DNA of 64,000 nucleotides from positions 372,001 through 436,000 of the forward strand of contig QPGO01000025.1 of assembly GCA_008632985.1 (NCBI GenBank), given 5' to 3'. Source of the stretch: Psammoneis japonica (Eukaryota). The notes under the pieces were generated by a model. That model did not search any database and had not been told where the DNA came from. It saw nothing but the letters and a program-made list of their open reading frames with translations. Position numbers and translations under genes: made by a program. This document shows positions 8,247 to 39,000 of this stretch, piece after piece (the first letter of the stretch is position 1; each line of letters starts with the position of its first letter).

Positions 8247-8275
8247 CTGTAATTACAGTCGATTCAAAGAACTGG

Positions 8276-17350: not shown

Positions 17351-17729
17351 GGTTCGATAACGTCTTACGGTAGGCGCACTCAACGCACTGTATTCATACC
17401 ACGGCTGTCTTTCTCTCCATCCTTGCAGGCCCCCACATCATTTTTTCCCGCGCTTTTTGCTTTCTTTGAAAAAGGGGGGAATTAAATTTTATTAAAAGCT
17501 ATAATATTGAATATATTTTTGAATAACGCAATGCGAGCCATCGGTAATCAGGGAATGCCGAGTGCAAAATAAACGTTTGCAGAGCGTTCCGTGTTATTGG
17601 TGTTCAATCATTGAATCGAAGTTATTCTCCTCGCTGTCTTGTCGCTGTCGTGATTTGTGAAATATATTTCAGGGAAGAGCAACGAGGAACCAAAACACCT
17701 GCGCCGCTTCACAAAACGCGAACAGCATA

Positions 17730-19088
17730 ATGCCCGACAACATTCATCTTGCAATCGCCATGGCGAAGAAAGGCGAGATGAATCCAGAGCAGTTCAAAAA
17801 GGCAATGCCTGATTCTGCGGCTCGCCTTAGAGGCAACTTTGATCGGTCTATCTCGGAACCGCCGTTTGATCGCATCTACGCTGTCACATTGTCTCAGCTC
17901 GAGTATCCAGATCTCATGGACAAGACGCTACCTTTCAAGGCCAACGTTGGCACCCCGACAGTAATGAAAGAGGTCAAAGAAATCCTTTCGTTGGTTTCTG
18001 TCCTAACTTGTATGGATGCTGCTGTGTACGCAAATGCTCCATATCAAGCACTGTTCTACCTCTCATATGTAAAAAATGTGCAGCAGAAATGCGAAATCTT
18101 TGGTGTTGGTGGTGATATGATTGCCGACATATATCACTCTGCTTTCGTCAAGACTGCATATGAGTTTCAAGAGGAAATTGAGAGTGGAGGCCGGATGAGA
18201 CTCGGCGATGTATGTGATTACCTCAATGATAGCGATGGCTTTCGCGACCAGTTCATTGATTACCTCGAACACGCTGTCACCCTCCCAGACAATCTGACGA
18301 CGGTCGAGGAACTCATTGAACACGCGAAGGAATACCATTCGGCACAGGCTGTTACGCAATCTTTCGTCAAGTCTGTCAGAGTCATTAAGGAGTTTCCAAA
18401 CTACTTTTCATGTCTTCAATGCTGGGTCTGCGGAGCTACTGAGACAAAGAACTGTTCCGCATGCAAGGTTGCAGCTTTCTGCGGCCGACCCTGTCTCCGG
18501 AAAGCTTGGAAGAAGAATCACAAGGTTCATTGCTTCCATTACAAGAGGGTAATGGATTATGTAGAACGACAATGCAGACGCATTGAACAGGCCTTGATGG
18601 AGAGCTTTCTTGCACCGGGAATCAGTTTGTTACAGCCGAATCAGCTCTTTGATTATACGATGGTCTGTACTCAAGCGTCGTTTATTGCTCAAGATCCCGG
18701 AGCTTCGCTACAGGAAGACACAGTTTCGATCAACAACTTCTACAAGAATCTCCTGCAAGTTGAGAAGGACGATTCGGCTTTTCGTTAGCTGTTTAAGCGC
18801 GGAACTAAAGTGGACAACAATGCGGCTATTCACTCGTTGGTCAATGTGTGTGTCAGTCTCATGTACAATGGGAGCCCTCCGCAGACACTTCCATTTCCAA
18901 AGGTAACTCGAAACACGTTCTTGAAGAAATACAAGGATGCGTCAGGCTTTGTCAAGCAATCGGAGGAAATGGTGAAGGCTTCAGTGATTGAGGACCTCAA
19001 GGCGTTCTTTACATCCGAAGACTACAGTCAGCTTTCCGTCGAGGAAGTCAACCATCGTTGTCAAGAGGTAAAAAAGGCGGGTATCTGA
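17730..19088 (+). CDS. MYND-type zinc finger protein (in-frame TAG at 18786-18788; frame continues to 19088)
   Basis: CWVCG...CSACKVAAFCGRPCLRKAWKKNHKVHC motif in a 352-aa ORF with an in-frame downstream continuation. Confidence 0.75.
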
Positions 19089-19298
19089 TAGCCTCTCACT
19101 AGAGAAGTCCTTGCATTATAGCGACGGGACTGGGGCTTCATGCAAGCGAACGACAAAGATAATAGCAATGCCAGAAAAATACTAAATTATGAACAAGTGT
19201 ATACATAGGTACACGCGTTTGAAACTGACTGATAACTAGTAGTACACAGAAATCTACGTTAATCCTTTTTCCAATACTCAACACTTGGACTTTGAGGC

Positions 19299-19910
19299 TT
19301 ACTCTTCGACTTCTTCCCATTCGTCGCTATCTTTGTTCTTCGCTTCCTCCTCCATTGGAACGGTCGTCACCTCAATTTCCTCCTCAGCCTTCGCCTCCTC
19401 GTCTTCCTTAGGCTCAGCCTTATCAGGCTCGTCATGGAGAATCGTAGCTTCAGCTTCTGGGACAACTTCGGTCTTTTCTTCCTCCTCCATGGATTCATCC
19501 GTTGGAGTACTGATCTCGGTAATTGGAATCGTCTGAGATGTAGGCTTGGAACTCTGTGGAGCTCGAAGATGCAATACGCCATTCTCCAACGAAGCTGTCA
19601 TGTTTGAAACATCGACGCCGTCGTCATCAAAGCGGAAATACTTGGAGATCTCTTCATATCCCTCACGTTGTCCTGAAATATGAAGAAGTCCATCTTCAAC
19701 TTCGACCTTCAGATTACTGAGCTTGATACCCGGCACGTCGACCGATAAACGGAATCCTTCATCGCCGTTGGTGAAATAATACCCCTTGTTGCAGGAAAAG
19801 GATGGACGTTGCCTGGGACCATGGTGGTAGGCTCTCCACGAGCGGTGATATGGCGCTCCGTAGGAACGATGGTGGGAGAAACAGGGGCTTCGAGTGGTCA
19901 TAAAGTACAT
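19299..19910 (-). CDS. Small heat-shock protein (HSP20/alpha-crystallin domain) with acidic tail
   Basis: LSVDVPGIKLSNLKVEVEDGLLHISGQR...ASLENGVLHLRAP; ATG at 19910. Confidence 0.9.
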   Translation of the reverse strand: MYFMTTRSPCFSHHRSYGAPYHRSWRAYHHGPRQRPSFSCNKGYYFTNGDEGFRLSVDVPGIKLSNLKVEVEDGLLHISGQREGYEEISKYFRFDDDGVDVSNMTASLENGVLHLRAPQSSKPTSQTIPITEISTPTDESMEEEEKTEVVPEAEATILHDEPDKAEPKEDEEAKAEEEIEVTTVPMEEEAKNKDSDEWEEVEE

Positions 19911-20322
19911 TGTTGTCGGTTGCGTTTTAGCTTCACCTTCGCTTTTTGATTTTTTATGAGCAGTTTGTGGGAGGAAAAAAGTGAGGAGCGTGATGGAGAA
20001 ATCGAATGGGTTCAGCACTTGGTTTTGTGCTGAAGTCCTACGAGGGGCTACGGAAAAACATCTACGTATGCTTCAAACACATTTCTAAATATAATAATAT
20101 GTATGTACAAAATATACGAAAAATCACGTAAGAATGATCGACGAGGTCGAAAGAAAGCGGTGCGAAACACGACTCGACTAACTTCTGTTTCCTTCGATAG
20201 CTGTCGGACTGAATCTTTATTATTCTTCTTTCTTTCAGTCTCGCAATTACTTGGATCAAAGTAGTATGAATGCTAGAGAAAAGTATGCATAGACTGTATT
20301 GTACTCGTTCAAAGCTTATTAA

Positions 20323-21684
20323 TTACGCTGGTAGCTTTTCCTCCTTAAGTTCCAATTCTCTGTAGCTTGGTCCGTCGCTGCTTTTCGTTGAGGCGATCGA
20401 TCGAGCCATTAGCAACCAAAAGAAGGCGCACAATCCCCAGAAGAACGTTGAAAGATAAAATAGATTCAGTGCTAACGCATGGGCTTTTTCAGATTGCATT
20501 GATTCACTGGTTTCGTCAATCATTCCTTTCGTGAGGTAGCCTACGAGCGGAGCACCAAAAATTGCAGCGGCTGTCTTTTCTAACAGGATCCAAAATGCAA
20601 CAATCTGAGCTCTCTCTGACGGATTTCGAGCCAAGTCCGCACAGATTGGGCGAATAGCAGCTGCCTGTGTCCAGCAGCCCACGATAAAGAAGCAGTTGTA
20701 CCAAACCATTGCCCATCCATAGGAACTTGAAAACAAGAAAAGGGAGAAACTGACAATCCCAGCAATGATACTTGTAAGAGCCACATAGATTCGTCCCCTG
20801 GTGTGGTGAGCAAACATATCACCAAGTGATCCACCGATCATTCCGCCAAACATTCCGCAAACACCCGAAGAAAACTGGAGAAAGACAACTTCCTCCTTCG
20901 AGAATTCCTTCCATTCCATTAGAAGCAACACAAACGACATCATATTCCAAGGTACTCCGCCTGTAACGCCTTGGGCGACAAGGTAGAAAAAGGTGGGTAT
21001 TCGTGCAATCCGTCTCATAATTTGTCCAAAAGTCATTTGTGGTTCATCGCTGGAAACCGCGTCGCTGTCACTGTTGCTGCGTTTTCTTTGAATTCTCAGT
21101 TTGCCCTTGGCCGCGATTGCGACAGCACCAGACATCAAGCCTACTACAACATACGGCATCCTCCACTCATCGAACCACACTACAGACGAAGTGGCAATGG
21201 TTCCTGCTGCTCTCTCCATCAATCCCATCAACCCGAATGCTCGACCCTTCATTGTCGGTGGCACGAATTCGATCAACATCGTTTGACTAAGTGGCAGAAT
21301 CGAGGCCAGCGCAGCGCCATTAAAACTTCGAAAGATCGCTTGAGAAACAACTCCACCAAAGGCAGCGATTCCAAGAGTAGCGAGTCCCCAGGCAAAACAC
21401 GACACGGACAAAATGTTGTGCGCTTGATAAATTGTGTACCGATGAACGAGCCAACCCCAGAACGGAAGCGATAGGGCGTAGGAAAGATTTGTAAAGAGGG
21501 AAAAATAACCAAGAGTTGCCACGTCAAGGTGAAGGGTCCGCTCAAGTACTGGAAACGATGCAGAGAGCAAGGCGTTATCAGCACTGTCGAGTGCGGCGAT
21601 GAAAACAAGCAGAAGAATCGGGAGCGTGAACAACGCCTTGTGGCTGTCCCAAAGCGAAGTAAGCGCCGCCATTTTCAAAGTCAT
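20323..21684 (-). CDS. MFS transporter, Spinster-like
   Basis: ~450-aa intronless multi-TM ORF with ALDSADNALL, FWGWL and KGRAFGL MFS-type motifs. Confidence 0.88.
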   Translation of the reverse strand: MTLKMAALTSLWDSHKALFTLPILLLVFIAALDSADNALLSASFPVLERTLHLDVATLGYFSLFTNLSYALSLPFWGWLVHRYTIYQAHNILSVSCFAWGLATLGIAAFGGVVSQAIFRSFNGAALASILPLSQTMLIEFVPPTMKGRAFGLMGLMERAAGTIATSSVVWFDEWRMPYVVVGLMSGAVAIAAKGKLRIQRKRSNSDSDAVSSDEPQMTFGQIMRRIARIPTFFYLVAQGVTGGVPWNMMSFVLLLMEWKEFSKEEVVFLQFSSGVCGMFGGMIGGSLGDMFAHHTRGRIYVALTSIIAGIVSFSLFLFSSSYGWAMVWYNCFFIVGCWTQAAAIRPICADLARNPSERAQIVAFWILLEKTAAAIFGAPLVGYLTKGMIDETSESMQSEKAHALALNLFYLSTFFWGLCAFFWLLMARSIASTKSSDGPSYRELELKEEKLPA

Positions 21685-21933
21685 TCCTTTTCGCACAGGT
21701 TGGTCCTCTCTTTTTTTCGTTTAGCAACGGCGACTGGGAAGGGCGCATAAATCTTTTGGGCCGTCTCTACGAGTATAAAGTCTCTACCACCAAGATGAGG
21801 TGCAGAACTTGGCCATGGCTCCCTCTTATTTTGATTTTTTGAGATGCCAGAAGAACCTACCGTACCGACCGAAGACCAAGCGGAATGTCCGGGGCAATAG
21901 AAGTTAAAATGAACAGATACATTTTATGATGTC

Positions 21934-22097
21934 TGCAGCAACTCACTCGCACGCTTCTGATATATAGTATTAATTTTGGATATTAGATTAACGTAGCCGT
22001 TTGAGAGGGGCTCGCCAGCGTTCGCTAACGCTTAGGCTCCCCTCTCTTCGGTCTACTCACTTCTTTGTTTTGACATCAGTTTCAGCTTGAGCTTGCA
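21934..22097 (+). repeat. 5' LTR of element 2 (TpA intact)
   Basis: Colinear with 33593-33756; shares ctgatatatagtattaat with the element 1 LTRs. Confidence 0.96.
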
Positions 22098-22127
22098 CTG
22101 TAATTACAGTCGATTGTAAAGAGCTGA

Positions 22128-22352
22128 ATGAGAAACAACGATGCAACTAATGGGCTTGCGAAACAAGAGAAAAGAGTGTTGAGAGCGAAGGCAGCGAACT
22201 GGGCTTTGGAACAAAAACGGCAAAAGGAGACACGAAAACAACGCGAACAGGATTTGGCGATTCGGGTTGCACAACTCGAGTCGAAGGTAGAGTGCTTGAA
22301 GCAGTTTCTTGGAGGACCAACTTGGCCTGATGAGCAATCGCGAGAGCCTTAA
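22128..22352 (+). CDS. Small upstream ORF of element 2 (74 aa)
   Basis: Homolog of 8276-8491 (EKRxLRAxAAxWAxE...EQxLAxRVxxLESKVExL). Confidence 0.6.
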   Translation: MRNNDATNGLAKQEKRVLRAKAANWALEQKRQKETRKQREQDLAIRVAQLESKVECLKQFLGGPTWPDEQSREP

Positions 22353-23706
22353 AGAACCGTGCATTTTGCATGCTGTGAAATTTGCTCATTCGGATTTGGA
22401 GCTTGCAAAATTGACTCAATCGCACGATGATGGCAGCACGCGTACGAAGAAGTGCCCTTGTTTTGATGGAACTAGTGGCATTGAAGCGTTGTTGTTCATG
22501 GAAGATCGTTTTCGTAAACTGGCTGCAAAACTTGAATTCACTGCAGGCGAAGAACTGTTTGACAATTTCGAGGGGAAGTGTTGACAGATGCCGCTGAAGA
22601 CAAATGGTCCAATCTCACCATGGCGATTCCGGATGCGCAGAAGATGGTGGCTCGTTTTGACCAAGAATTGGCTCGTTTTTATTTGTCATGTTGTGAAACT
22701 GAAGCACGTGACACGATGATTGAATGCTTGCTCTCTCTTAAAAAGCCACACGATGTTGAAGTGCAGGCACGTGCGGATCGAATGGAGACCTTGGCACGAC
22801 ACACGAACAAGTTGCCGGGAAACAATCCAGTTGTCACTCAGAACCAGAAGAAGAAGATGATCTTTGACAGCTTCCCTTTGTCATGGCGCGAGATGCACAC
22901 AAGAGCAGGACGCACGATTGGAAATGATGCATTGGCGGAAATTGTCGCGCACATGAGCACGGAGAAATCATTTGCAGATGGGAACAAGAAGACTTCGAAG
23001 AAGCGCAAAGACGGACAGTCGAAAGGTGGTGGCTCTGCCAAGAAGAAAGGCAATCGCATTGACCCAGAATCTCAATGTCCTTTGCATGCTCACAATCACA
23101 AGTGGAAAGATTGCGCCATGAATCCCGACTCTAACAACTGCCGTCCAAGAACTGATCGCGGAGGTCGCGGGTGTGGTGGCCGTGGCGGTCGAGGTGGCGG
23201 TCGAGGTGGAGGTCGTGGTTGTGGCGGAGCGCAAGGTCGTGGTTGGCAAGGCCGTGGCTGTCAAGGTCATGGTGGTGGCCGAGGAAACTGCGGTGGTCGC
23301 GGAAAACACAACTCTGGCGGCAACAGCGGCGAGCATCATGATGATGGTGGCTCTTGCATGCAACATCAAAACGACACCTGAACCAATGCAGATGGCGGCG
23401 GTTACGGCAATCTGGCCAGAACGGCTCCTCCCAATGATTGGTCTGCTGAAAGCCATCATCTTGATTTGATGGGAGGGCCTCGAGAGCATCGAGGTTGAAC
23501 GGGAAGTTTTCGACCTGGTGGTCGCTTCTTGGGACGCGGTCGACACTCACCCAATGAGCTTGAAGAGCTGTCGTCCGAGTGTGTCACTCCTGATTCTTGC
23601 ATGTTTGATGATTGTGCTGACTGCATTGATGATTGTTGTGTGTGTGCTGCTGATGCATTTGATGATGACGATTTCGGAAATTACACTGTGAATGACGAAG
23701 ACGATG
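22330..23706 (+). pseudogene. gag and gag-pol junction of element 2 (frameshift near 22572)
   Basis: ESLKEPCI...LTQSHDDGSTRTKKCP as in element 1; CPxHxHxHKWKDC knuckle-like motif and RGG-rich tail. Confidence 0.88.
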
Positions 23707-24907
23707 TGCAACATGCGTTGTCATGTACGTGTCATGTGTGTGTGTCCATGTGTTAAATAAAAGCACATTTCAATCGCACGTCAATCGTGGGTTCGTACGA
23801 AGTGCAGATCAGTCACACAGAAGTGATCGGATGTCGAGAATCGCAAATGCGATCGCACGATGATGTTGACATCTTGTGTGTCAACATCAATCGAATCCGG
23901 ACAATCTGTCGTCACGATCATGTTCTCCGAAAGGCCTTTTGTCTGTAGGAGCAGTGCAAAAGGTTTAGGCTGTTGAGAACCCGTTCGGAGAAACCCAAAG
24001 TGATTGCGCAGAAATGATTCTCATAATTTTCACCTTTTGAACTTCACTCTACTTTCGTTTGCACTCGTTCTTCGAGCACAGTGCATTGTGCACACACACC
24101 ACAGAAGGTGATGAGTTCAAGATGAAGCTTTCACCTCATGTGGCCAATGCCAAGACTTCGTCAAGGCAGGAGAAAATCGTCCCTCAACCGCTGGAATCGA
24201 ACTCCGAGCCGAAGAGCCTCAAACCGAGCCAGCACCTCAAGATGGAGCAATGTTTTCATCCCGAGAAGAAGGACAGCCGCACCCACACCATCAATGTTGA
24301 GCACTGCAAGAAACAAGGTGTCCCCAAGTTCATCAAATTTCTCAAGAGCTGCGATCAACTTCTGGTGGGCCAGAATGTCAGGAAGCAATCTGATGAGTTT
24401 CGTCTCATGCGTGTGTTGCTCCAAGGAGATGCTCTACGTGCCTTCGAGAATGCGGCAGCGAACCTTGAAGACGAATCTGCGGAAGGAAGCTTTGCAACAT
24501 GCGTTGTCATGTGCGCACTACACACGTACATCTACACATTAAACAAAAGTGTGTTTCAATCGTACGTCAATCGTGGGTTCGTACGAAGTACAGATCAATC
24601 ACACAGAAGTGATCGGATGTCGGGAATCGCAAATGCGATCGTACGATGATGTTGACATCTTATGTGTCAATGTCAATCGCATCCGGACAATCTGTTGTCC
24701 CGATCATATTCTCCGAAAGGCCTTTTGTCTGTAGGAGCAGTGCAAAAGGTTTAGGCTGTTGAGAACCCGTTCGGAGAAACCCAAAATGATTGCGCAGAAA
24801 TAATTCTCATAATTTTCACTTTTTGAACTTCATTCTACTTTCGTTTACACTCGTTCTTCGAGCATGGTGCATTGTGTGTACACACCACAGAAGGCAATGA
24901 GTTCAAG

Positions 24908-26062
24908 ATGAAGCTTTCACCTCATGCAACCAACGCCAAAACTTCGTTAAGGCAGGAGAAAATCGTCCCTCAACCGCTGGAATCGAACTCCGAGCCGAAG
25001 AGCCTCAAACCGAGCCAGTGCCTCAAGATGGAGCAACGTTTTCATCCCGAGAAGAAGGACAGCCGTGCCCACACCATCAATGTTGAGTGCTACAAGAAAC
25101 AAGGTGTCCCCAAGTTCATCGAATTTCTCAAGAGCTACGATCAACTTCTAGTGGGCCAGAATGTCAGGAAGCAATCTGATGAGTTTCGTCTCATGCGCAT
25201 GTTACTCCAAGGAGACGCCCTACGTGCTTTCGAGAATGCGGCAGCGAACCTTGAAGATGAATCTGCGGAAGGAAGCTTCGAGAAATGCCTGCAACATCTC
25301 ACGAGGCATGTGTTTCCCAAGAACGCACTTTCGGTGCAGAAACGTTATTTGCGTCGTGATCTCAAGAAGCCGGAGTCCATGAAAGTACGCGAAATTGCTG
25401 CTTGGGTCCAGGAAGTCAACGAAGACCTCAAGTTCTATCCTCCCTTTGGGAAGGAACAGAAGATCGAGGACGACGAGCTCAAGGACATCCTCTTCAACCT
25501 TGCACCTCGAAAGTGGCAGCGTCAGTCGACCGTCCAGGGTTTCGAAATTTTGAAACATACCTGTGACGAGCTGGTTGAGTTCTTGGAGCGCCTGGAGGTC
25601 GCAGAAGACATGTTTGATGGCATTCATGCCAAGGCTGATGGCAGTGGCGGCACTGCATCAAAAGCCAAGAGTGGTTCCCAACGTGGTTCCAAAAATGGTC
25701 ACCAACATGGTGCCGAAAAATCTCAGTCCGAGAAGTGGTGCATTTTGTGCGAGAAACCCACTCATAACACGGACAAGTGCTGGTCGATCAAAAGACTTGC
25801 GAAAGAACGCCTTGGGAACTATGAACCCGACCCGAAACGGCGCCGTTCAAATGGCAATCGCACGTGGTCTCGTCGCGACAACGACAACGCCGCTCGCAAA
25901 GAAGAGTTGAATGCCATGGCGATCCAAGCAGTTCAAAAAATGCTCAAAGCGAGTTCTTCGAACAATGATGAAAAACACAAGAGCAAAGATTGTGATTCTG
26001 ACACCCTTGACGAGGAAAATCATCAGTTTGAAAAAATGACGCGCAGTGATTCCGAGGAATGA
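24908..26062 (+). CDS. Gag of element 3
   Basis: Open 384-codon frame with LLQGDAL, QKRYLRR and CILCEKPTHNTDKC zinc knuckle. A truncated duplicate of its 5' part lies at 24122-24492. Confidence 0.85.
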   Translation: MKLSPHATNAKTSLRQEKIVPQPLESNSEPKSLKPSQCLKMEQRFHPEKKDSRAHTINVECYKKQGVPKFIEFLKSYDQLLVGQNVRKQSDEFRLMRMLLQGDALRAFENAAANLEDESAEGSFEKCLQHLTRHVFPKNALSVQKRYLRRDLKKPESMKVREIAAWVQEVNEDLKFYPPFGKEQKIEDDELKDILFNLAPRKWQRQSTVQGFEILKHTCDELVEFLERLEVAEDMFDGIHAKADGSGGTASKAKSGSQRGSKNGHQHGAEKSQSEKWCILCEKPTHNTDKCWSIKRLAKERLGNYEPDPKRRRSNGNRTWSRRDNDNAARKEELNAMAIQAVQKMLKASSSNNDEKHKSKDCDSDTLDEENHQFEKMTRSDSEE

Positions 26063-29000
26063 CTTGCACCGCAAGAGGAGTCTTGCGCTCTGCTGGATGT
26101 TGGGAAGCCCAGAAAAAGGGCCAAAGTAATTCATGCTAGTCCAGCAGTCGTCGCCCATATGAACACTTCATTGGGTGAGGCAAAAAATAAGCCTCTGCGC
26201 GTTCTCCTCGATGGCGGAACATCGTCAACCATAATTTTGCGCAAATTCACGCGGAAACTCAGAACAAAAGTGTCCGCCACCAAACTCTGGGAAACCAAAG
26301 GAGGGCTTTTCACGACTGACAGTCGATGTAAGATCCAATTCACCTCACCCGAATTTGACAAACACAAGATGATTGAAACAACGGCACATGTTGACAACTC
26401 CCCTTCTTCTTCGAGTCGTTGTGACATGATCATGGGACGCGACTCAATGTCAAGTCTTGGGACAACATTGGACTTCTCGAATGAAGAAATTAAGTGGGAA
26501 GATGCAACTGCTCCTGTGAAGAATGTTGATGCACTCTTCGATGCCGATGTTTTTAAGTTGATTGCCAATCACATTGAGGAATCTCATGCAGTGATTGGTC
26601 TCAATGACAGGGTCAATCGGATCCTTGACTCAGACTGTCACGCTGCAAACCTCAACAATGTGACCGCAGCAGCTGCTCATCTAACTCCTGAAGAGCAGAA
26701 GCAGCTGAGCTTCCTCTTAAAAAGATTTGAAAACCTTTTCGATGGTTCTCTGGGCAAATGGACCGGGAAACCGGTGGATTTAAAGTTGAAATCGGGCGTG
26801 AGTCCGCATCATGCCAAACCATTTCCCATGCCACAAGCCTTGGAGGCGACTGCTCGTAAGGAGGTTGAAAGACTGTGCAAGTTGAAAGTCTTAAGAAAAA
26901 TAAATTGTTCTGAATGGGCGGCTCCAACCTTTGTTCAACCCAAGAAAAATGGCAGAGTTCGGTTCTCACCCGACTTTCGAGAGCTGGGTAAGAGGTTAAT
27001 TCGTGCTCCGTTTCCTCTGCCCAACATTCAGGACATGCCACAGAAGCTCGAAGGCTTCATGCATGCAACGTCCCCAGATTTAAACATGGGATGCTGTCAC
27101 ATCGAATTGACGCTGCATGCACGTCGCTTGTGCACGATCGTCATGCCTTGGGGCAAACATGAGCACTGTAGACTCCCGATGGGAATCTGTGGAGCTCCAG
27201 ATGTTTTCCAAGAGCACACGAGTGAGCTCATGGCAGGTCTGGAGTTCGTCAGAACTCACATTGACGACACATTGTGTCTTGCAAAAGGTGATTTTCAAGA
27301 CCACCTCAAGAAGCTTGAAACGGTGTTCTTGCGCCTAGAACAAGCCGGATTGAAGGTCAACGCCGAGAAGTCCTTTTTCGCTAAACCCGAAGTGGACTGT
27401 CCAGGCTTTCATGTCACCCGCAAGGGCATCAGTCCGATTCCAAAAAAAGTAGAAGCGATTCACGCGATCGCAACTCCTAAAACTCGCAAGGAATTGCGAC
27501 GCTTTATCAGTGTGATCAACTGCTGTCGAGACATGTGGCCTCGACGATCTCATGTTTTAGCTCCTTCAGCCAAACTCACTTCTGCCCAAGTAAAGTGGCA
27601 ATGGACCGAAACAGAACAAAAAGCCTTCGAAAATGTGAAGCGCATCATCTCCAAAGACATGCTGTCATCACACCCGAATTTTAATGTGCCCTTTGAGACA
27701 TGTGCCGATGCCAGCAAATCTCAATTGGGGGCGGTTGTTACTCAGAAAAACCGACCAATTGCCTTCTACAGCCGCAAGCTGAATGGAGCGCAGACGCGTT
27801 GTGCTGCAACGGAAAAAGAGCTGTTGTCCACAGTGGAGACGTTAAAAGAGTTCCGAAATGTGCTGTTTGGCCAACAGACAAACATGCACACGGATCACAA
27901 AAATCTCACACACAAAAATTTCACAACGGACAGAGTCATGCGTTGGCGTCTAATAAAATGGAAGAATGCAGTCCCAAAATAACATGCCTTCTACCCAAGT
28001 GAAGTGGCAATGGACCGAAACAGAGCAAAAAGCCTTCGAAAATATGAAGCGCATCATCTCCAAAGATGTGCCATTGTCACACCCGAATTTTAACATGCCC
28101 TTTGAGACATGTGCCGATGCTGGCAATTCTCAATTGGGGGCGGTTGTTACTCAGAAAAACCGACCAATTGCCTTCTACAGCCGCAAGCTGAATGGAGCGC
28201 AAACGCGTTGTGCCACAACAGAAAAAGAACTGTTGTCCACAGTGGAGACGTTAAAAGAGTTCCGCAACACACTGTTTGGCCAACAGATGAACATGCACAC
28301 GGATCACAAAAATCTCACACACAAAAATTTCACAACGGACAGAGTCATGCGTTGGCGTCTAATGAAATAGAAGAATGCAGTCCCAAAATGACATGCCTTG
28401 AGGGCAAGGCAAATGTTGTCGCAGATGCGATTAGCCGACTTGCTATGAAGAAAATAGAACCCATGGAAACCCTCAGCACAGAAGAGCTGGCTGAAAAGGT
28501 CCCACCAAAATCCTGCGACAATGTCTTTCCGTTAAATTACAAAGTTCTTGATTATGAACAAAAACGGGACAAAGACATTCTCTCCCAATTGTCAAATAAG
28601 ACGTTTCATACGAAGACTTTTCGTGGAGGCGAGCGAGACCGGTTGCTCACATGTCATAAGGATAAAATTGTCGTCCCGAGGACGTTACAAAAGGCAGTGA
28701 TAGATTGGCATCACACGCACCTTCTTCACCCTGGCATAAATCGAACAGAAGAAACAATCTCACAACACCTGTGGTGGTCCACCTTACGTGAAGACATACG
28801 AAAATACGTGTCGAGATGTGAGACGTGCCAAAAATTCAAAAAGAAACACAAGAAACATGGACATTTACCTCCTAAGTGCGCAGAATCCGTGCCATGGGAA
28901 CGACTGTGTGTGGACCTTGTTGGGCCATACAAAATACGTCGTAAGGGAAAGAAAAAACCCCCAGTCCTGAAATGTTCAACTATGATCGATCCAGCAACTG

Positions 29001-29674
29001 GATGGTTTGAAGTTGTGGAAATCCCAAACAAGGAGTCCACAACTGCAGCTGGACTGCTAGAACGAACATGGTCAAGCAGACATCCTTGGCCATCGTCAAT
29101 TGCATGTGACCGTGGAAGTGAGTTCATCAGACACCAATTTAGAGAAATGGTGCAAGATGATCATGGCATTGAAGTCAAGCCTGCAACTGCATGAAATCCA
29201 CAAGCAAATGCAGTTGTTGAACGTGCACATCAAGCACTGGGGAACATGCTCCGCACATTTGATTTGCAACACACACCTCTGGACACTGAGGATCCTTTCG
29301 CTGGAGTGCCATCAGCGGCAGCGTTTGCGGTGCGTTCTGTGCATCACACCACTGCGCAAGCTACACCAGGACAACTGGTCTTCAATGGAGACATGACATT
29401 CAACGTCCAACATGTCGCAGACTGGAAACCAATCCAGCAGCGAAAACAAGAAATCACAAATAAAAACAACGCTCGAGAGAATGCTCGACGCACTCCTTGC
29501 ACGTGCAGAGCAGGAGAAAAGACACTGCTCGAGAAAGACTCGCAAAAATTAGAACAGCCCTGTGTTGGACCGCATGCAATGACAACGGCACATGCCAATG
29601 GCACAGTGCAGATCAAACGCGGCAACGTCATTGACACTGTCAACATTCGTCGAATGGCGCCGTTTGACGACTGA
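26063..29674 (+). pseudogene. pol of element 3 (PR LLDGG, RT with THIDD, RNase H duplicated, integrase)
   Basis: ORFs 26159-27982, 27966-28370, 28109-29194 and 29246-29674 with Gypsy motifs; frameshift caused by a 409-bp tandem duplication. Confidence 0.92.
27582..28399 (+). repeat. 409-bp tandem duplication of the RNase H region
   Basis: 27582-27990 repeats at 27991-28399, with CTT microhomology at the junctions. Confidence 0.93.
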
Positions 29675-30079
29675 CTCTAATGTGCAATTGGGGAGGCGAG
29701 TGCAACATGCGTTGTCATGTGCGCACTACACATGCATGTCCACATGTTAAATAAAAGTGTGTTTCAATCGCACGTCAATCGTGGGTTCGTACGAAGTGCA
29801 GATCAGTCACACAGAAGTGATCGGATGTCGAGAATCGCAAATGCGATCGTACGATGATGTTGACATCTTGTGTGTCAACATCAATCGTATCCGGACAATC
29901 TGTCATCACGATCATATTCTCCGAAAGGCCTTTTGTCTGTGGGAGCAGTGCAAAAGGTTTGGGCTGTTGAGAACCCGTTCGGAGAAACCCAAAGTGATTG
30001 CGCAGAAATGATTCTCACAATTTTCACCTTTTGAACTTCATTCTACTTTCGTTTGCACTCATTCTTCGAGCACAGTGCA

Positions 30080-33000
30080 GATGTGGGACTTGAGTGTGCT
30101 GCACCAACCCCAAAAACAAAACCAATTGAACCATCAAATGTGGTCCCCACAACCTTGTTCGCGGCGCGATTCATTCAAGATGAGGAAAGCAAGCGCGTGA
30201 TGCGGGTGTTGCTTGATTCCGGTGGAACCCATTCAATGATTCATGCTCGGGTGTTGCCGGTTGGAGCGGTTCCAGCATTGGAAGAGACAGGACCAATTCA
30301 TGCGAAGTTCAGGACAACAGCGGGAGAATTCGAATCAACTTGTTGTGTTCGACTGCAGGACTTGGTGCTCCCTGAATTCGACAAGATGAAACATGTTGAC
30401 GGCATGCATGTGCATGTGTTTGACTCACCCTGCCAATGTGACATGATCCTTGGACAGGACTTCTTGGTGAGAGCGGGTGTCACATTGGATTTCGAGCACG
30501 GAATTGTCAAGTGGCTCGGTTCAAGCATTGCGATGAAGCCGAGGAATCAGCGGACTGGCACCCAGCAATGGCTCGATGATTTGACTGATGAGCCAGCCAA
30601 TGATGATGAAGTGTGGGACAGCTGCATCCTCGATGCAAAGCATGAGGAGATGTCCCTTCTGAAGTGGCTTCAGCTCAGAAGCATCTTGCTGCCGGACAGC
30701 AAGAGAAATTGCGCCTCGTGTTGGAGAAACACACTGCTCTTTTTGATGGCACCCTTGGCAAGTGCACTGGCGAAAAAGTTCACCTTGACATTGATCCTGA
30801 CGCCGTTCCGTGCCATTCTCGAGCGCATGCAGTGCCGCACAATGATCTCGAGACTTTCAAGCAAGAATTGGATCACTCAGTGGCTCTTGGCGTTCTTGAA
30901 GAAGCCGGAACTTCGGAATGGGCTGCAGGTGCCTTTGTTCAGCCGAAGAAAGATGGTCGAGTGTGGTGGCTCAGTGATTTTCGGGAACTCAACAAAGCCC
31001 TCAAGCGCAAGGTTTGTCCCTTGCCGATCATTCAAGATGTGTTGCAAAAGAGAGCAGGGTGCAAATTTCTTGCAAAGTTGGATCTCTCAATGATGTGCTG
31101 CACGTTTGAACTGGACGACGATTCCAAAGATCTGACGACAATCGTGACACCCTTTGGAAAGTGTCGATGCTGCTGTCCAGCAATGGGTTTGAAGCCGGCT
31201 CCGGATGTTGCGCAACACTTGATTGAGAAAACTGTGCATGACTTGGACGTTGATGCATGTGTTGATGATCTCGCTCAATTTGATGACAATTTTGACATTC
31301 ACCTTGGTCGTCTCGACAAACTCCTGCAACATTTGGAAGAAGCTGGATTTAAAGTGAATCCTTTGAAATGTGAATGGTGTGTGCAGGAAACAGATTTCCT
31401 TGGGCATTGGCCAACTCCGACTGGAATTCGTCCGTGGAAGAAGAAAGTGGAAGCTGTTCTGCGAATGCAACCTCCGGAAAATGTCAAGCAGCTTCGTTCG
31501 TTTCTTGGTGCTGTGACACACTGTCGCAACATGTGGCCTTGGCGTTCTCACTTGTTGAAACCCTTGACAGATCTCACAGGCAAAGGCTCGTGGACGTGGA
31601 CAGCAGATTGTCAGGCGGCGTTCGAAGAGATGAAAGCAGCTCCAGCGGCCGAGACGTTGATGGCGTGTCCGAATCATGACAAACCCTTCCACATCTGTGC
31701 CGATGCCAGTGATCACCAAATGGGTGCAGTGATTGTACAAGACGGAAAACCCATTGCATGCTGGTCTCGAAAGCTGAACGCGGCGCAACAAAACTGCTCG
31801 ACGATCGAAAAAGAACTCTTGGCCGTTGTCATGTGCTTCCGCGAATTCCGAACGATGCTCCTTGGCGACGACTTGCACGCATTCACCGACCACAAGAACC
31901 TCACCTTTCGCACCTTGAATTCACAACGTGTGCTCCGTTGGCGCCTCTTTCTGGAAGACTTTGCCCCTCAATTCCATTGTGTCGAAGGCCGCTTGAATGT
32001 CTTGGCTGATTGTTTTTCTCGTTTGCCTTGCATGGATCCTCCCTCTGAAGGGAAGAGCTTGGCTCTGGGCAAAGGAACTGTTGTTGATTTTGCTCCACTC
32101 GATTCGAAGTTGGTGCCGAGTGAGGAACCATCCGAAGTCGAGGATTTCCACGATGAGGACTTGGAGCTCGGCGCATGCCGATTCAAGTGTTGTCGCAACA
32201 TTGAAAATGAAGTCCACTCACACTTCTTCTCTTTCTTTGTTGATGAGCCGAAACTGTTCGATTCCTTTTTGAATCACCCTGCGATGCAGGAGATGCAAAA
32301 TCCAATGACGTTACAATGGATTCAAGAGCACCAGTTCGAGGACCAACAATTGAACCAGATGCACATTGCTCACCCTGATCATTTCCTTTGTGGAATGTGT
32401 GAACAATCGACCGCTTGTGTGTTGTCGCATGCGACCAAATGATCCTCCAGGACAGTGGAAAATCTGTTTGCCGACTGCGCTTGTGCCCGACATCTTACGG
32501 TGGTGTCATCTCGTCCTTGGCCATGCCAGAAGCCAGCGCATGCGTGAAACAATCCAGGCTCATTGTTGTCACCCTGGGTTGCGTCGTGTGTGTGATGAAC
32601 ATTCTTGTGCTGATTGCCAACGCAACAAAACTTTGGGTCCTGGCTGTGGAGAGCTGCCCAAATGAGAAGCTCCATTGACTCCCTGGTTGGAAGTGGCAGT
32701 TGACCTCATTGGCCCATGGAAAATCAAAGTGCCGAATGGAGAGATTGAGTTTCGGGCATTGACCTGCATTGATCCTGTCTCTGATCTTGTTGAACTGGTG
32801 AGAATTGAGAACAAAACTGCTCGACATGTTGCCAACCAATTCGAAAACTGCTGGCTTGCACGCTGTCCCAGACCGAATCGATGCATCCACGACAACGGCG
32901 GCGAGTTCACTGGGTGTGAGTTTCAGATGCCATTGCAACAAGCCGGAATTGATGATGTGCCGACTGCTTCATGCAACCCTCAAGCCAACGCCATTTGTGA

Positions 33001-33469
33001 ACGAATGCACCAGACTGTCGGCAATGCATTGCGCACGCTCATTGCTTCTAATCCACCTCAAAACCTTCAGGGTGCAGCCAGCCTCGTGGACGATGCTTTG
33101 GCAACTGCAGTGCATGCAACCCGCTGTGCTGTTTCCCGTTCCTTGCAGATTTCACCAGGTGCCATGGTGTTCGGACGTGACATGATCTTAGACATCCCAG
33201 TGCTGGCGGATTTGTTGACGATTCAAGGCCATCACCAGATGCTGATCAACGACAACTTGCGATGAGCCAATGCCAAGAGAAGATCCTGCGATTGTCAAAT
33301 GGGTGATCAAGTTCTAATCAAGTCCATTGAGCCATCCAGACTCGAGCCTCGTGCTCATGGCCCTCATCCTGTTGTTCAAGTGCATGCAAATGGCACACTC
33401 TCGGTTCGTCGAGCTCCTCATGTGGTTGAGCGCCTCAACACTCGGCGCCTGATTCCTTTTCGCGGTTGA
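30080..33469 (+). pseudogene. pol of element 2 (PR, RT with CVDD, RNase H, integrase) with frameshifts and stops
   Basis: LLDSGG, DFRELNK, DACVDD, TDHKNL, VDLIGPW, HDNGGEF; colinear with element 1 pol. Confidence 0.93.
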
Positions 33470-33592
33470 TCAGGGGGTTTTCTTCCCAACACCTGGGTTT
33501 CCTCCTGTCATCATCTTTGCTTTTGGTTTTGGTCCTTGGTTTTTGGCCCTTTGCATGATCCTCCAGTTCTTTCGGATCATGGAAGGGAAGAG

Positions 33593-33756
33593 TGCAGCAA
33601 CTCACTCGCACGCTTCTGACGTGTGGCATCAATTTTGGACATTGGATTGATGCAGCCATTTGAGAGAGGCTCGCCAGCGTTCGCTGACGCTCAGGCTCCC
33701 CTCTCTTTGGTCTGCTCACTTCTTTGTTTTGACATCAGTTTCAGCTTGAGCTTGCA
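33593..33756 (+). repeat. 3' LTR of element 2 (all TpA converted)
   Basis: Same length as the 5' LTR, 17 substitutions, no TA left. Confidence 0.96.
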
Positions 33757-36022
33757 ATGTCTGGTCGGTCATCATTGCAGTGCAACTCACAAATGACCTG
33801 GAAACAAATCCCCTTCAGCATGTGAACGTGAACCCACCGCACTCGGGAGGTCGGTGGTCGCATTTTTCAGTCGCTTGTGCTTGTGTTGCAGTGCACGTGG
33901 CACAGAAATAAAAGGGTTCTACGCTGGGCTGCACGCAAAACTGTTTCACCTGCCACCTCTTGCTCCAAACCCAAAATTGGTCAAATTAAAATTTTGAGCA
34001 CACCTCACATGCCAAAATCGACCATTTTCTTTCGATCTGTCGGCGGACCTGATGCGAAAAACGATCAGAAAGTCAATTTTTCGACACAGCCGGTTTTTGA
34101 AAACTCAAAATAGACCCACTCTGCTGATTTTCGAGAATGGATCCGCCGACAGTTCATTTCCTCATTGTTTTTAGTGCAAACATGCGCAACCATCGACCAA
34201 AAATTCCAAGCATTTGGCTTCGAATGAGCACTTCAGTCTTGCTCGGCTTTCGCCCGCAGGAGCCACACTGTTTCCTGCTGACGGTGTCTCTGAACGCACG
34301 AAATGACCCCGTCATGCACATCCCAAATGTCATGCACAAACACATGTGCACGTCATTTCATGTGAACACCTGCGCAAAATGCACATCAATTCAACTTTGA
34401 TCATTTCTAGTTCACTCTAAACATCTGTGAGTCAGCCGGGGCAGGGCTGGTTGGTCGCACACGTTTGGGTTCGATGCAGCTGTGCAACTGGCCATGCCCT
34501 GCAGGAAAAGCTGTTTGGTGGCGTGCGAGCAGATGCAGCACAGTGTGCGGTGTGCATGGTGCGTGCTGTAGAAGCAACAAAGCAACAAAGCAAAGAGCAC
34601 GGCGTGGGTCAAAACGTTGTAAAATGACGCGACAACAAGCAGCAAGAAGAAACCCAACTTGACCCATGAACACAGCGCATGAACATTGTGCAACAACTTC
34701 AACAGTGTCTCGCATTCCCTGCTTGTAGATCAGTGAACGCCGCTCGCATGTTGCTCACCATGGTGTTGTTGGGCGTTGTCGTGTTGTTTGCGCACGAAGA
34801 ACATTCTGTCCATTTGTCCGACAGTGACTTTGTTTTGCCAACAGTGGACATTTTGCTGTGCACAATCTGCAGACATTTTGAGAAGTGCTTCGGGGAAACC
34901 CTGTTCGGACCGTTGAATAGAAATTTTTTTTACACAGATTTAAAAATGTGTTTCGGGGTGTTCCTCACTTTTTTGAATTTGGGTGTGTGCGTTTTAAAGA
35001 CCAAAGAAATGTCAATGACATGTAAAATCCTCAGAGACCGCAACAAATTTATGTTCCATGTAGACCACGTAAACTGTGTGCTGGTGGAAAATCCACCGCC
35101 TGATGCGCTCCAGGTCTGGGTGGGGCCTCGCACTGCTGAACTGTGACATCGACAGTTTTTTGAGTCTCGTCGTATGTTGCGCACGTAGATTTCTACGTGA
35201 TTTTTTCAACATTTTGTGTCATTTTACGGTGCACTTGTTGAGTGATCCGTCCAACAACTTTTGACATTTTTTGTTGCAGCGCGATTCTTTGATGTCTTAA
35301 GAATCGCGTGGGGCAGGCGAAGTTGCAAAAACGTCAAGTGGCAAGAGGCACAATTGCACCACAAACTTGGCCATTTATTTGATGTTGAAGATGAACACAT
35401 CCATTGATTAAATTCTCGCACCACGGAGCTCGCACGCAGAATTCTGCAGGCCCAATGTCACACGGAGTCCCACCTGGGGCTGGAACGTGTCGCCTGTCAA
35501 CTCATCAGCAGCAATTCTGCGTGTGCTCCACTTGCACCTCACACACGCACACACACCTGCGCAGTCCAATGACGCGCACACGTGCGCGAGACCAGAGACC
35601 ACAGCAAAGGCGCCGTTGGAAAGAGCAGATTCTCAGCTTTCATCGATGTGCCGTTTTGCAGTGTGCCTTGCCACTGGACAACATGGCGAGACCGTGCATG
35701 AGCCTCTTGTGCATGGCAACGCAGCATTGTCAACACGCACCTGGGAAGCATGACCACAGGAGGGCGTGGCTCCAGGTCTTGGGCAATTCCAGAAGGATGC
35801 CAAGAGAGCATCCATGTGAAGCACACCAGCCCGTCGTCTGGCCCACGATGGCAGCGTGATTCCACACGATGACATCACTCGTGCATGGCGCGTGGTGGCT
35901 TGATGATTCGCACGATCCACAATGCGAACGCACGATCGATTTGATGCGATCCAAATGCGAACGAACAGGGATTTGGCAAGATTCCCTGTTCGCACGATCC
36001 CACTTTCTCTGCTCTAAACTGG

Positions 36023-39000
36023 TGCAGCATGCGACTGTTGTGTGCACACCCATGATTGTACATTGTTTGTGTGTCAATCGCACCACAGTCGTGGATGCGT
36101 GCAAAGGACAGAACGATCACACAGAGTTGATCGGATGTCGAGAATTGCAAATACGATCGATTGACGATGTTGACATCTTGCGTGTCAACAGCAATCGCAC
36201 CCGGACAATCTGTTGTCACGAACACATTCTCCGAAAGGCCTTTTGTCTGTAGAAGCAGTGCAGAAGCTTCAGGCCATTGAGAACTCGTTCGGAGAAACCA
36301 AAAATCACAGAGCAAAATTTAATCTCATAATTTCCACTTTTCGTGCACTGTTCTACTTTCGTTTGCACTCGTTCTTTGAGCACAGTGCATTGTGTGCACA
36401 CACCACAGAAGGTAAAAAGCACGGAAAATGAAAATTTTAACTAATGTGCCTTTGCAAATTCTTCTGTGAACAGGAATGAATCGCGTCAGTTCTGCTGGAA
36501 TCGATTTCCGAGCGGAAGAAGCTCAAGCCGAGCAGTGCCTCAAGATGGAACGCTGTTTTTCGTCCACCAGACAAGAGGATTCGCTCCAATGCGGTCTATT
36601 CCAAGCACCCAAGGATCAAGGGCTCTCAAGCACACCGCATTGTCAAAAAATCTACACCAAGTCATGGTTGCAGAGAATGCAAGTTCTGAGTCAATCAGAT
36701 CCGAGAAATGCGTCTGCCATGCAAGGAGAGACTGTTGGAGAGTTTTTTGAGACCGAGTCGATGATCCTCGAGTCCAAGGAACAAGAGGGAATCGTTGGAA
36801 AGCACCTCAAGCATCTCACAACTCATGTCCTCCGAGGAAATGCACTTCAGAATCAGGGAAATTATTTTCGAGACGACCTGAAGAAACCAGAGCTGCTTGA
36901 CAGCGAGAAAGCCTCTGTTGGACCCAAGAGGTCAACGATGAGAGTCTGTGCGACCCTCAGATGGATTCTAAGTCGAATCTAGCGGGAAACCGAGCGCTGA
37001 TTTATCAGCTGTCACTCGCACCGCAAGGATGGCAGCATCAGCCTACTGTCCAAAATGTTGAACTGCTGGATCATGCCCTTGACGAGCTGATTGAGGTTTG
37101 AGTCGTCTAGAGGTCGGCAAGGACGTCCATGACAAAAAAACATGTCAATTCGGGCTCTGACAGCGCAGTTGATTCCACAATCAAAAAGGTTCCAATTTTG
37201 GTTCCAAAAATGGTCTCCCACATGGCACCACCACAATCCAAAGTGAACAAAAGGTCCAATCTTTGAAAAAAGAATGCCTGCATCACGGATTAAAGCCATT
37301 CCGAAAATGAACTAGCAAAAGAGTGCAAGGGTGACTCTGAAAGAGACCCAAAAATGCGCCGTTCAAATGGCAATCGCACGCGGTCGCGTCGCGACAACGA
37401 AAATGCCGCTCGCAAAAAAAAAAGATGAACGTCATGATTGATCAGGCGGTTCAAAAAATGCTCAAAGCGAGTTCCTTGAACAAAGAAAAAGAGCACAAGG
37501 GCAAAGAATCAGATTCTGATGCCCTCAGTGAAGAAAAATGCCAATTTGATCGGATGATCCAGACTGAATCCGAAGAACAATTTTGGTCCATTCACGAATC
37601 ACATGCTTTGCTGGACATTGGGAAGCCTAGAAAAAAGGCAGAAATAATTCATGCCAGTCCAGGAGTCATCATTTACATGAGTGCTTCCTTGGGAAAGGAG
37701 AGAAAAAAAAAGCATCTGCGTGTTCCTGTCGACAACGGAACATCGTCAACCACAATTTTGCGCAAATTCGTGCGAAAGTTGAGAACACAAGAATCCGCCA
37801 CCAAAAACTTGGGAAACCAAGGGTGAGCTCTTTACGACTGATGGTAAACACCGAATTCAGTTCTCACTGTGCGAAATTTAAGGCATGCTGATGTTCAAAC
37901 AGTGTGTGTTGAAAACACCAAATTTTCTTCAGGTTCAAATGACATGATCATGGGACGCGACTTAATGTCCAGTCCTGCAAGTCATGTTGGACTACGCAAA
38001 TGCAGAAATCTAATGGGAAGAAGCAATTGCCTTATGAAGAATGTTCGTGCACTCTTCGATGCCGATGTTTTCAAGCTGAAAACCGATCACATTGAAAAAT
38101 GTGACGCCGTGAATAGAGTTGACAACGGAACCAATGGTCCTCGACTCACATTGTCACGCCATCGATCTCAATCAAGTGACAACTACGGCGATGCATCTAA
38201 CCCAAATGAACACAACCAACTCAATCTTCTTCTTAAGAGGTTGAAATCGTTTTGAAAAGTTCCTCAGACGAATGCATGGGAAGCATCAGTGGATCTCATC
38301 GTGGAAAATCTGACGCGATTCCACCACGCGTGAGAACCTTCTCCTATCACAGTCTTTGGAGGCGTCCAATCAAAAGGAGTTTGACCCATTATGAAAGATT
38401 GAAGTCTTGAGAATGAAATTGCTCTGAACAAGTCGCTCTGAGACTCATTGTCCAAAGAAAACAGGTCGAGTTCGACCGTGTCCGACACTCAGAAGCTTAG
38501 CACAAGGTTCATACAGGTGGTGTGTCCTTTACCCAATATTCAGGAAATACTGTTGAAGCAAGAACGTTTCACATATGTAATCTATTTGATTCAAACATGG
38601 AATGCCACCATGTCAAATAAAAAAAGCACACGTCGTGCTCACACGAAAATCATGCCGTGGGGAGAAAATGAGCACTGTGGACTTCCAATGAGAATCTATA
38701 GAGCCCCAGATATTTTTATACAACACTTGAGTGAACTCATGACAGGTTTGAAGTTGTCAGAACGACTATATGTGATAGTTTGTGCCTGACAAAAGTAACT
38801 TCAAAATATCACCTGTACAAGCAACAGCTTAGTGCGACATTCAAACGACTAGAACAGTCGCTTAGAAGGTTAACAACAAAAGTCCTTCACTATTTAACTT
38901 GAAATAAACTATCAAGACTTCCATACGTAACGATATGCAATCGATTACAAAGAAAATGGAGGCGATTCAAGCAATCGCAACACGAGAAAAACGTAAAGAA

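Follow-up and report, generated by a model that had tools for sequence, protein, structure and literature searches.

A footprint of probable TpA-specific A:T-to-G:C hypermutation in transposon tracts of the diatom Psammoneis japonica

A TpA-depleted retrotransposon and its surroundings

A stretch of 64,000 nt from Psammoneis japonica (contig QPGO01000025.1, positions 372,001-436,000, forward strand), referred to as the window and numbered from its own first base, contains transposons interspersed with host genes. One of them, element 2, is a Ty3/gypsy long terminal repeat (LTR) retrotransposon with LTR ends TG...CA and the 5-bp target-site duplication (TSD) ATGTC on both sides, and a further Ty3/gypsy element, here called NEST, is nested within it. 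The transposon tracts of the window are poor in TpA and rich in CpA and TpG, and we regard genuine hypermutation from A:T to G:C, specific to TpA and subsequent to integration, as the probable cause (probability about 0.85). The parts of element 2 are:

21929-21933, plus strand: left TSD ATGTC
21934-22097, plus strand: 5' LTR, 164 bp, with 12 intact TpA
22098-23705, plus strand: 5' internal part, TpA normal to 22148 and then sparse (14 TpA in 1.6 kb)
23706-30079, plus strand: nested Ty3/gypsy element NEST, LTRs at ~23699-24085 and 29694-30079, reverse transcriptase (RT) motif HIDD
30080-33592, plus strand: 3' internal part with protease, RT, RNase H and integrase, 2.0 TpA per kb, RT motif CVDD
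33593-33756, plus strand: 3' LTR, 164 bp, fully mutated, with 0 TpA
33757-33761, plus strand: right TSD ATGTC

The two LTRs of element 2 differ at 17 positions, and the differences are transitions without exception (from the 5' to the 3' LTR, seven A>G, six T>C, two C>T and two G>A). Of the 12 TpA in the 5' LTR none survives in the 3' LTR, where six read TG, five CA and one CG, so that the outcomes on the two strands are near even, and they are interleaved. The remaining differences are two CG/TG and one CG/CA (three of nine CpG) and a single G/A. Thirteen of the 17 changed bases fall within the 24 TpA positions of the 5' LTR (hypergeometric P=7.3e-10), and none of 2,000,000 random placements of the changes was as concentrated in TpA as the observed one. 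These figures reproduce every count in a preliminary description of this DNA, i.e., the shared TSD, the 17 differences, the erasure of 12 out of 12 TpA (6 TG, 5 CA, 1 CG), the decay of three of nine CpG and one other G>A. The outcome within a tract is close to all-or-none (12/12 in one LTR, 0/12 in the other), a result that independent decay of each site at a single rate cannot produce.

Two structural features of this composite were noted in passing. The 5' open reading frame (ORF) of element 2 contains imperfect 12-18-bp repeats of the GGTGG/CGAGG type at 23150-23284 (Gly/Arg-rich). NEST has a 786-bp tandem duplication (23753-25278), which includes a third LTR copy (24493-24871), and a second one of 410 bp in the RNase H region (27579-28399).

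The other transposons, the tracts and the host-gene DNA of the window are as follows:

1-3400: tract nearly without TpA (6) and CpG (24), CA+TG observed/expected 1.7-1.9
8085-13471, plus strand: element 1, Ty3/gypsy, ~70% identical to element 2, TSD TGGCC, RT motif YIDD
13472-21933: host-gene DNA serving as internal control (MFS transporter, HSP20, zf-MYND), 350 TpA in 8.5 kb
20323-21720, minus strand: MFS transporter ORF, its start ~210 bp from the 5' LTR of element 2
33757-38400: TpA-poor tract, continuous with the 3' LTR of element 2; summed contig depth ~11x single copy in the bin 33883-34300
36023-40722, plus strand: element 3, a degenerate NEST relative, TSD CTGG
39800-47200: TpA-poor tract, including 44400-46200, where CpG is nearly gone too
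49600-57850: TpA-poor tract, including 54900-57800 with 6 TpA and 23 CpG in 2.9 kb
52076-52942, minus strand: Harbinger/PIF-type DDE_Tnp_4 transposase ORF of a DNA transposon, 289 aa, 0 Tyr

The TpA observed/expected ratio is at most 0.43 in 42 of the 64 1-kb bins, many of which lie at 0.00-0.05, and CA+TG reaches 1.4-1.9 in the depleted bins. TpA/ApT in the tracts falls to 0.0-0.2 and (CpA+TpG)/(ApC+GpT) rises to 1.5-2.3. Both 1-kb-window cut-offs taken from a preprint on the chlorarachniophyte Bigelowiella natans (bioRxiv 10.64898/2026.01.13.699255) are passed by 23 of the 64 bins (our CA/TG value is the mean of two ratios and may deviate slightly from that of the preprint), and the runs of passing bins include 1-4000, 32001-36000, 40001-43000, 44001-47000, 50001-54000 and 55001-58000. 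TpA is missing altogether over 1,306 bp (30044-31350) and over 1,329 bp (56544-57873); 1,306 bp without TpA has P~1e-24 at the TpA frequency of the host DNA. NEST is partly depleted (16.7 TpA per kb), as is the interior of element 1 (8600-13000, 8.9 per kb).

The recognisable content of the depleted bins is transposons throughout: three gypsy elements (counted as element 1, element 2 with NEST nested in it, and element 3) and the Harbinger-type ORF, the remainder being unannotated repeats. The host-gene stretches (MFS, HSP20, zf-MYND, Ysc84, FAA hydrolase and mitochondrial ribosomal protein L37) have TpA at 0.5-0.7 and CpG at ~1, with 2-4% Tyr in their ORFs; in the control 13472-21933 TpA observed/expected is ~0.6 and the ORFs contain 2.6-4.3% Tyr. 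Within the window, depletion is thus confined to mobile DNA, i.e., to gypsy or Harbinger domains and unannotated repeats, and the genes are ordinary. To the right of element 1, the segment 13472-14200 has sparse TpA (8 in ~730 bp) though it lies outside the element, which may reflect either spread of the mutation or an older transposon remnant. A perfect 7-bp satellite, ACACGGC (3577-4117, 77 copies, 99% matches), borders both the tract lacking TpA and CpG and gene-type DNA.

In four tracts (1-3400, 44400-46200, 54900-57800 and 63586-64000) CpG is lost along with TpA (CpG observed/expected 0.06-0.3); the doubly depleted tracts retain 20-24 CpG in 1.8-3.4 kb, and CA/TG are the sole remaining pyrimidine-purine steps. 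A Pfam search of 103 further ORFs of the window matched five; among the ORFs lying within the first three of these tracts (11, six and eight, respectively) none was matched. Sharp edges delimit the doubly depleted tracts, one of them at ~54800 next to a G14 run and an A-run. CpG is retained at observed/expected 0.8-1.0 in the majority of TpA-depleted tracts, and the TpA process is therefore separate from CpG decay.

The named homologues of the element 2 polymerase are diatoms (Nitzschia, Mayamaea, Thalassiosira, Epithemia and Pseudictyota), as are those of the host FAA hydrolase (Odontella, Leptocylindrus and Thalassiosira); the best identity for a host gene is 67%.

Polarity, sequence context and timing of the changes

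The polymerase ORF of element 2 was searched against protein databases, which gave 610 homologues, 120 of them listed. Tyr content is 2.7-5.8% in 117 of these 120. The first 60 listed homologues, after removal of three Tyr-poor ones, were used as outgroups, and alignment columns with at least 70% Tyr were treated as conserved Tyr columns. Element 2 has kept none of 17 such residues (13 are Cys and 4 His), element 1 has kept one of 11 (6 Cys, 4 His) and NEST none of 18 (8 Cys, 3 His, 5 Phe, 1 Trp, 1 Ser), and three control relatives have kept 19/19, 19/19 and 17/18. Most other conserved residues of element 2 are retained at 75-100%, with lower values for Ile (3/9) and Cys (2/4). The Tyr of the RT motif YxDD is present in element 1 (YIDD) and replaced in element 2 (CVDD) and NEST (HIDD).

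When replacements explicable by a single transition were polarised by the outgroups, 72 of the 79 A:T>G:C changes fell in TpA. A>G occurred 47 times after T and twice after A or C, and T>C 25 times before A and five times before other bases; G:C>A:T replacements numbered 25, with 10 of them in CpG. Since conserved Tyr columns have been lost and the polarised replacements concentrate in TpA, TA is ancestral and the process is TpA-specific. The LTRs agree with this polarity, as those of element 1 (8085-8246 and 13310-13471, 100% identical, 15 TpA each) have CTGATATATAGTATTAAT and TATTAGAT...TAACG in common with the 5' LTR of element 2. The preliminary description had proposed, from the LTR pair, an A:T to G:C change at TpA with outcomes on both strands, a TA ancestor, near-saturation and erasure of Tyr codons. 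The polarised spectrum and the presence of both TG and CA in the LTR bear out the first, the outgroups do not make TG/CA ancestral, saturation holds inside the tracts, the Tyr columns of element 2 are empty, and the excess of A>G at TpA over other contexts is clear.

As a baseline we used 79 environmental polymerase relatives taken from the best 80 of 464 matches, a set that is biased to intact copies and uninformative on prevalence. None of them is mutated (TpA observed/expected 0.45-1.00). The dinucleotide frequencies per kb are:

Median of the 79 relatives: TpA 51.6, CA 73.9, TG 65.7, CpG 47.6
Element 2, 3' part: TpA 2.0, CA 78.3, TG 110.5, CpG 48.7

The TpA lost from the 3' part of element 2 turns up as TG and CA, and CpG is unaffected.

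These data bear on two explanations that dispense with such a process. The polarity could be reversed, with the 3' LTR ancestral and the TpA of its 5' partner produced by C>T at CpA/TpG, as in repeat-induced point mutation (RIP); every such difference is indeed a TA versus CA/TG transition, much as in ascomycete RIP. This would need an ancestral LTR of 164 bp devoid of TpA, against an expectation of 5-9, and a mutagen that had changed just 11 of the 32 sites at which the 3' LTR reads CA or TG, along with one CpG. Furthermore, the unmutated LTRs of element 1 have the TpA motifs, the mutated transposon ORFs remain open although RIP makes stops and would add Tyr codons as well, and the host is a diatom, not a fungus. 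The loss, not gain, of Tyr columns and of YxDD, together with the polarised spectrum, refutes this reading, to which we assign practically no weight.

Selection might also have led transposons to avoid TpA/UpA, e.g., as an escape from a restriction-like activity or from an RNase. In favour of such a view, UpA is scarce in many RNAs and viruses, and the host DNA itself has TpA observed/expected of ~0.6. Selection would hardly destroy catalytic and conserved residues (YxDD; 0 of 17 Tyr in element 2), the changes arose after insertion, in non-coding LTRs and unequally between the LTRs of one copy, and the 79 relatives span 0.45-1.00; we consider selection as good as untenable.

The timing of the changes can be read from two further LTR pairs, each with its TSD. 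In NEST, 21 of 27 changed bases are TpA-derived (one transversion), and in element 3, 24 of 30 (no transversions), so that over the three pairs 76-80% of the LTR divergence is TpA-derived. Seven sites in the NEST pair and ten in the element 3 pair are double differences, with CA in one LTR and TG in the other. CpG is almost constant (23 sites conserved and 2 changed in the NEST pair, 18 and 3 in the element 3 pair), and CpG ancestry therefore cannot explain the double differences, which would be the expected result of one ancestral TA resolved separately in two LTRs. The double differences thus indicate that each LTR copy was mutated independently after insertion. Both tandem duplicate pairs of NEST likewise diverge mostly at former TpA sites. 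The DDE_Tnp_4 ORF has His at four columns that are mostly Tyr in its relatives and Phe at a fifth such column (some of these columns are also changed in the two closest relatives). As a DNA transposon is also affected, no reverse-transcription step is needed.

This evidence speaks against an ADAR- or ADAT-like editing of retrotransposon transcripts that was fixed by reverse transcription. RNA adenosine deaminases favour an A preceded by U. This preferred context, which is also given in the Discussion of the B. natans preprint (bioRxiv 10.64898/2026.01.13.699255), and the fact that the majority of affected elements are retrotransposons count for it. Against it stand the LTRs of the same insertion, which differ in three elements and do so independently (CA versus TG), the about equal share of both strands in the 3' LTR of element 2, the mutated DNA transposon, and tracts that extend past element ends into neighbouring repeats; RNA editing is accordingly extremely improbable.

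With regard to strand choice, the TG share is 0.55-0.60 in 8600-13000, 22200-23690 and 30081-33756 (~+45 TG versus +4 CA per kb over the family baseline), a bias that NEST and the other tracts lack, and across the three gypsy elements Tyr>Cys and Tyr>His number 27 and 11. The TG share per tract is 0.46-0.60 overall, with no domain-wide strand pattern. The base at +1/-2 did not predict the mutated strand (12 versus 15 of 27 informative events among 50), and elements 1 and 2 agree in their Cys/His outcome at 7 of 10 shared Tyr columns, a level compatible with chance in view of the Cys bias. Among the 329 TpA that survive in the depleted tracts, TTAA (2.5-fold), CTAA/TTAG (1.7) and CTAG (1.7) are over-represented, and ATAT (0.16), ATAC/GTAT (0.37) and ATAG/CTAT (0.52) under-represented, by comparison with the relatives (22,548 TpA), which suggests that RTAY may be mutated more readily than YTAR.

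Tracts, targeting and a possible mechanism

According to the preliminary description the process is aimed at repeats. All mutated tracts with measurable copy number are repeated, but the 5' LTR of element 2 and both LTRs of element 1 are spared. The 427-bp bin with the 5' LTR (and ~260 bp beyond) sums to ~39x single-copy contig depth, yet the LTR is unmutated; the flanking DNA on the MFS side is single copy (contig depth ~56). In element 1, which has gene-type DNA on both sides, both LTRs plus a further 250-350 bp per end are spared, the margins measuring ~250-500 bp, and short repeats within genic DNA have an ordinary spectrum in which transversions dominate. These data therefore favour the tract, rather than the repeat as such, as the unit of targeting; tracts consist of transposon interiors and transposon-transposon junctions. 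The 3' LTR of element 2 lies inside a depleted tract that runs unbroken into the adjacent repeat (the next TpA is at 33909), and the 5' LTR abuts a gene promoter, which would account for the mutation of the one and the sparing of the other.

Several points weigh against hypermutation. The spectrum comes from this window, and the copy-number control spans 21500-34300 only. The gain in elements 1 and 2 was mainly of sense-strand TG, unlike that in NEST, and in the Harbinger ORF on the minus strand Tyr gave way to His. TpA is self-complementary, and an altered A and an altered T are not separable from sequence. Element 1 pairs a heavily mutated interior with two identical, TpA-rich LTRs; either very recent mutation in place left both margins intact, or a copy that had been mutated beforehand was mobilised in trans. 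In the middle of element 3 lies a TpA-normal island (38400-39700, 80 TpA in 1.3 kb, i.e., 61 per kb, GC 0.41). Such an island would not follow from a simple domain model, and hypermutation is thus patchy inside a single element. Finally, the exact single-copy contig from sequencing run X1 ends at 21959, short of the first LTR TpA, the 12 LTR sites are without independent reads, and run X1 is possibly the assembly's own data.

An APOBEC-like G>A origin was considered for the island and rejected: relative to NEST, not only G>A (109) but also C>T (86) is raised, which is what one would expect if NEST is simply the more mutated copy.

The gap in the reads matters for a possible assembly or base-calling artefact, in which a modified adenine at TpA (and 5-methylcytosine at CpG) would be miscalled as G (or T). 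Such a miscall, by which the apparent mutations would be epigenetic marks, would yield transitions only, random TG/CA and sharp domain edges, and no platform is recorded for the reads. The X1 contigs were assembled from exact 31-letter words; the longest spans 315 kb, and single-copy DNA has a depth of ~56. They gave 1,402 pieces that match 21500-34300 at >=99%, and they carry CA/TG dimorphisms between copies at six sites, which speaks for accurate reads. At the 33 best-supported X1 variant sites, the counterpart of the window's CA/TG is CG at 11, the other of TG/CA at six and TA at five. None of the contig pieces on 21500-34300 bridges the LTR TpA sites; thousands of short pieces come from other copies. 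Moreover, three of the 120 listed polymerase homologues (P0019, P0084 and P0117, listed under JGI or ENA) are Tyr-poor (0.6-1.1%) and have kept 3/19, 4/17 and 3/19 conserved Tyr, with Cys/His instead, so that the footprint is present in further database records, and in old copies the signature occurs together with numerous transversions and indels. An artefact is very improbable.

On the reading that we favour, hypermutation acts in place, on DNA, after integration, converting an A:T pair to G:C where A follows T on either strand. It proceeds tract by tract to near saturation, across transposon-transposon junctions, and fades 50-500 bp inside an element at a border with gene DNA. Its outcome is permanent inactivation: Tyr codons are rewritten, as are TAA/TAG stops and TATA-like motifs, and new stops hardly ever arise. 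The role in genome defence suggested by the preliminary description fits the erasure of Tyr and the saturation of transposon tracts, and the process looks like such a defence. A mark of silenced chromatin or small RNAs, rather than sequence duplication as such, may guide it, a proposal to which we give even odds.

The chemistry might be deamination of adenine to inosine at 5'-T-A-3' in DNA, the inosine being copied as G. A>I>G is a standard outcome of deamination, and the preferred substrate of TadA/ADAT2 enzymes is an A with U on its 5' side. That the enzyme is an adenine deaminase acting on DNA, TadA/ADAT2-like or other, has in our view about a one-half chance of being right. The same hypermutation could have another chemistry, i.e., an altered thymine (oxidised or otherwise modified, and pairing with G) or error-prone repair of TpA within silenced chromatin. 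Sequence does not reveal the altered base, since a TA>CA change of one strand is a TA>TG change of its complement, and the failure of the +1/-2 base to predict the mutated strand is also in keeping with this. To our knowledge, no thymine modification gives near-saturating T>C. The authors of the B. natans study likewise prefer an ADAT2-like deaminase, by prediction only (bioRxiv 10.64898/2026.01.13.699255). We regard these other chemistries as distinctly unlikely.

Comparison with known systems

RIP of Neurospora and other ascomycetes resembles the hypermutation described here in being a transition-only, dinucleotide-specific, tract-wise and near-saturating inactivation of transposons at the DNA level. 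RIP requires duplicated sequence and RID/DIM-2 and takes place at a premeiotic stage. It changes CpA to TpA, which raises TpA and AT, i.e., the opposite of the direction seen here, and it makes stop codons, which the process here almost never does; here, in addition, repeated LTRs are spared. The editing of retroelements by ADAR (A>G) and APOBEC3 (G>A) is likewise a deaminase-type transition hypermutation, with a 5' U favoured by ADAR, but it acts on RNA or on pre-integration cDNA and on one strand, whereas the changes here are post-integration, affect both strands and include a DNA transposon. Methylation-driven CpG decay (deamination of 5-methylcytosine) also turns a self-complementary pyrimidine-purine step into TG/CA, but it is C>T at CpG, and the TpA process here is separate and much faster. 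In this DNA such decay forms a second signature, in the tracts 1-3400, 44400-46200 and 54900-57800 and at three of nine CpG of the LTR pair.

The closest counterpart is found in B. natans. The preliminary description knew of no account of such a system, which is out of date, since the same TpA to TpG/CpA hypermutation has been measured de novo in this alga (Mettrop et al., bioRxiv 10.64898/2026.01.13.699255). According to the preprint, 231 of 302 nuclear mutations in mutation-accumulation lines lay in an integrated giant virus and a virophage (~1000x background), 230 of these 231 were A>G/T>C and all of the 230 were assigned to TpA, de novo events occurred in some lines only, TpA-depleted coding sequences were enriched in RT and DDE domains, and an ADAT2-like deaminase was proposed on the basis of structure prediction only (bioRxiv 10.64898/2026.01.13.699255). 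The preprint names no stramenopile or other species (bioRxiv 10.64898/2026.01.13.699255), and a full-text literature search gave no description from a diatom and the B. natans preprint alone for TpA-specific hypermutation.

As far as the preprint describes it, the likeness is close: the changes there are nearly exclusively A>G/T>C at TpA, giving TpG or CpA by strand, they affect foreign DNA only with the remaining genome ordinary, and loss of TpA with gain of CpA+TpG occurs in clustered 1-kb windows. The predominance of A:T>G:C is matched here by 13 of the 17 differences between the LTRs of element 2, by 79 polarised changes versus 25 of G:C>A:T, and by 0-1 transversions per LTR pair. The differences concern lineage (Rhizaria there, a stramenopile here), saturation (TpA observed/expected of 0.00-0.05 over kilobases here, 0.45 in their nucleocytoplasmic large DNA virus region) and targets (the main one single-copy there, multi-copy LTR retrotransposons and a DNA transposon here). 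The per-copy independence of LTR pairs, the spared margins at gene borders and the subset of tracts without CpG are seen here and not in B. natans as described. Rates were measured de novo there, and the process is deduced from its footprint here.

The footprint is now found in a diatom besides one rhizarian alga, and the process would thus be either old and widespread in the SAR group (stramenopiles, alveolates and Rhizaria) or have arisen twice; a survey of algal genomes is worthwhile under either origin. Unlikely is an old DNA-editing defence shared by diatoms and chlorarachniophytes that would be guided by silencing marks instead of duplication, deaminate A at TpA and (by the same or a partner deaminase) C at CpG, and drive all pyrimidine-purine steps to CA/TG, the state of the tracts 1-3400, 44400-46200 and 54900-57800; if true, it would place a natural adenine deaminase of chromosomal DNA in a major marine algal group. 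If adenine of chromosomal DNA is indeed deaminated, the enzyme would be the natural counterpart of engineered adenine base editors.

There are also practical consequences. LTR-based insertion ages will be badly inflated because of the 76-80% of LTR divergence that derives from hypermutation. Mutated transposons lose TAA/TAG stops and present long spurious ORFs in all frames, and their proteins score poorly against domain models (just 38-41 bits for RVT_1). Tyr-poor, Cys/His-rich polymerases in protein databases (three of the 120 listed homologues) mark the process. LTR pairs provide a natural experiment, and post-integration, per-copy tracts that end short of gene borders constrain models of targeting. 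The process is not an undescribed one, being of the kind known from B. natans, but it is seen here in diatom transposons, at saturation and with new anatomical detail.

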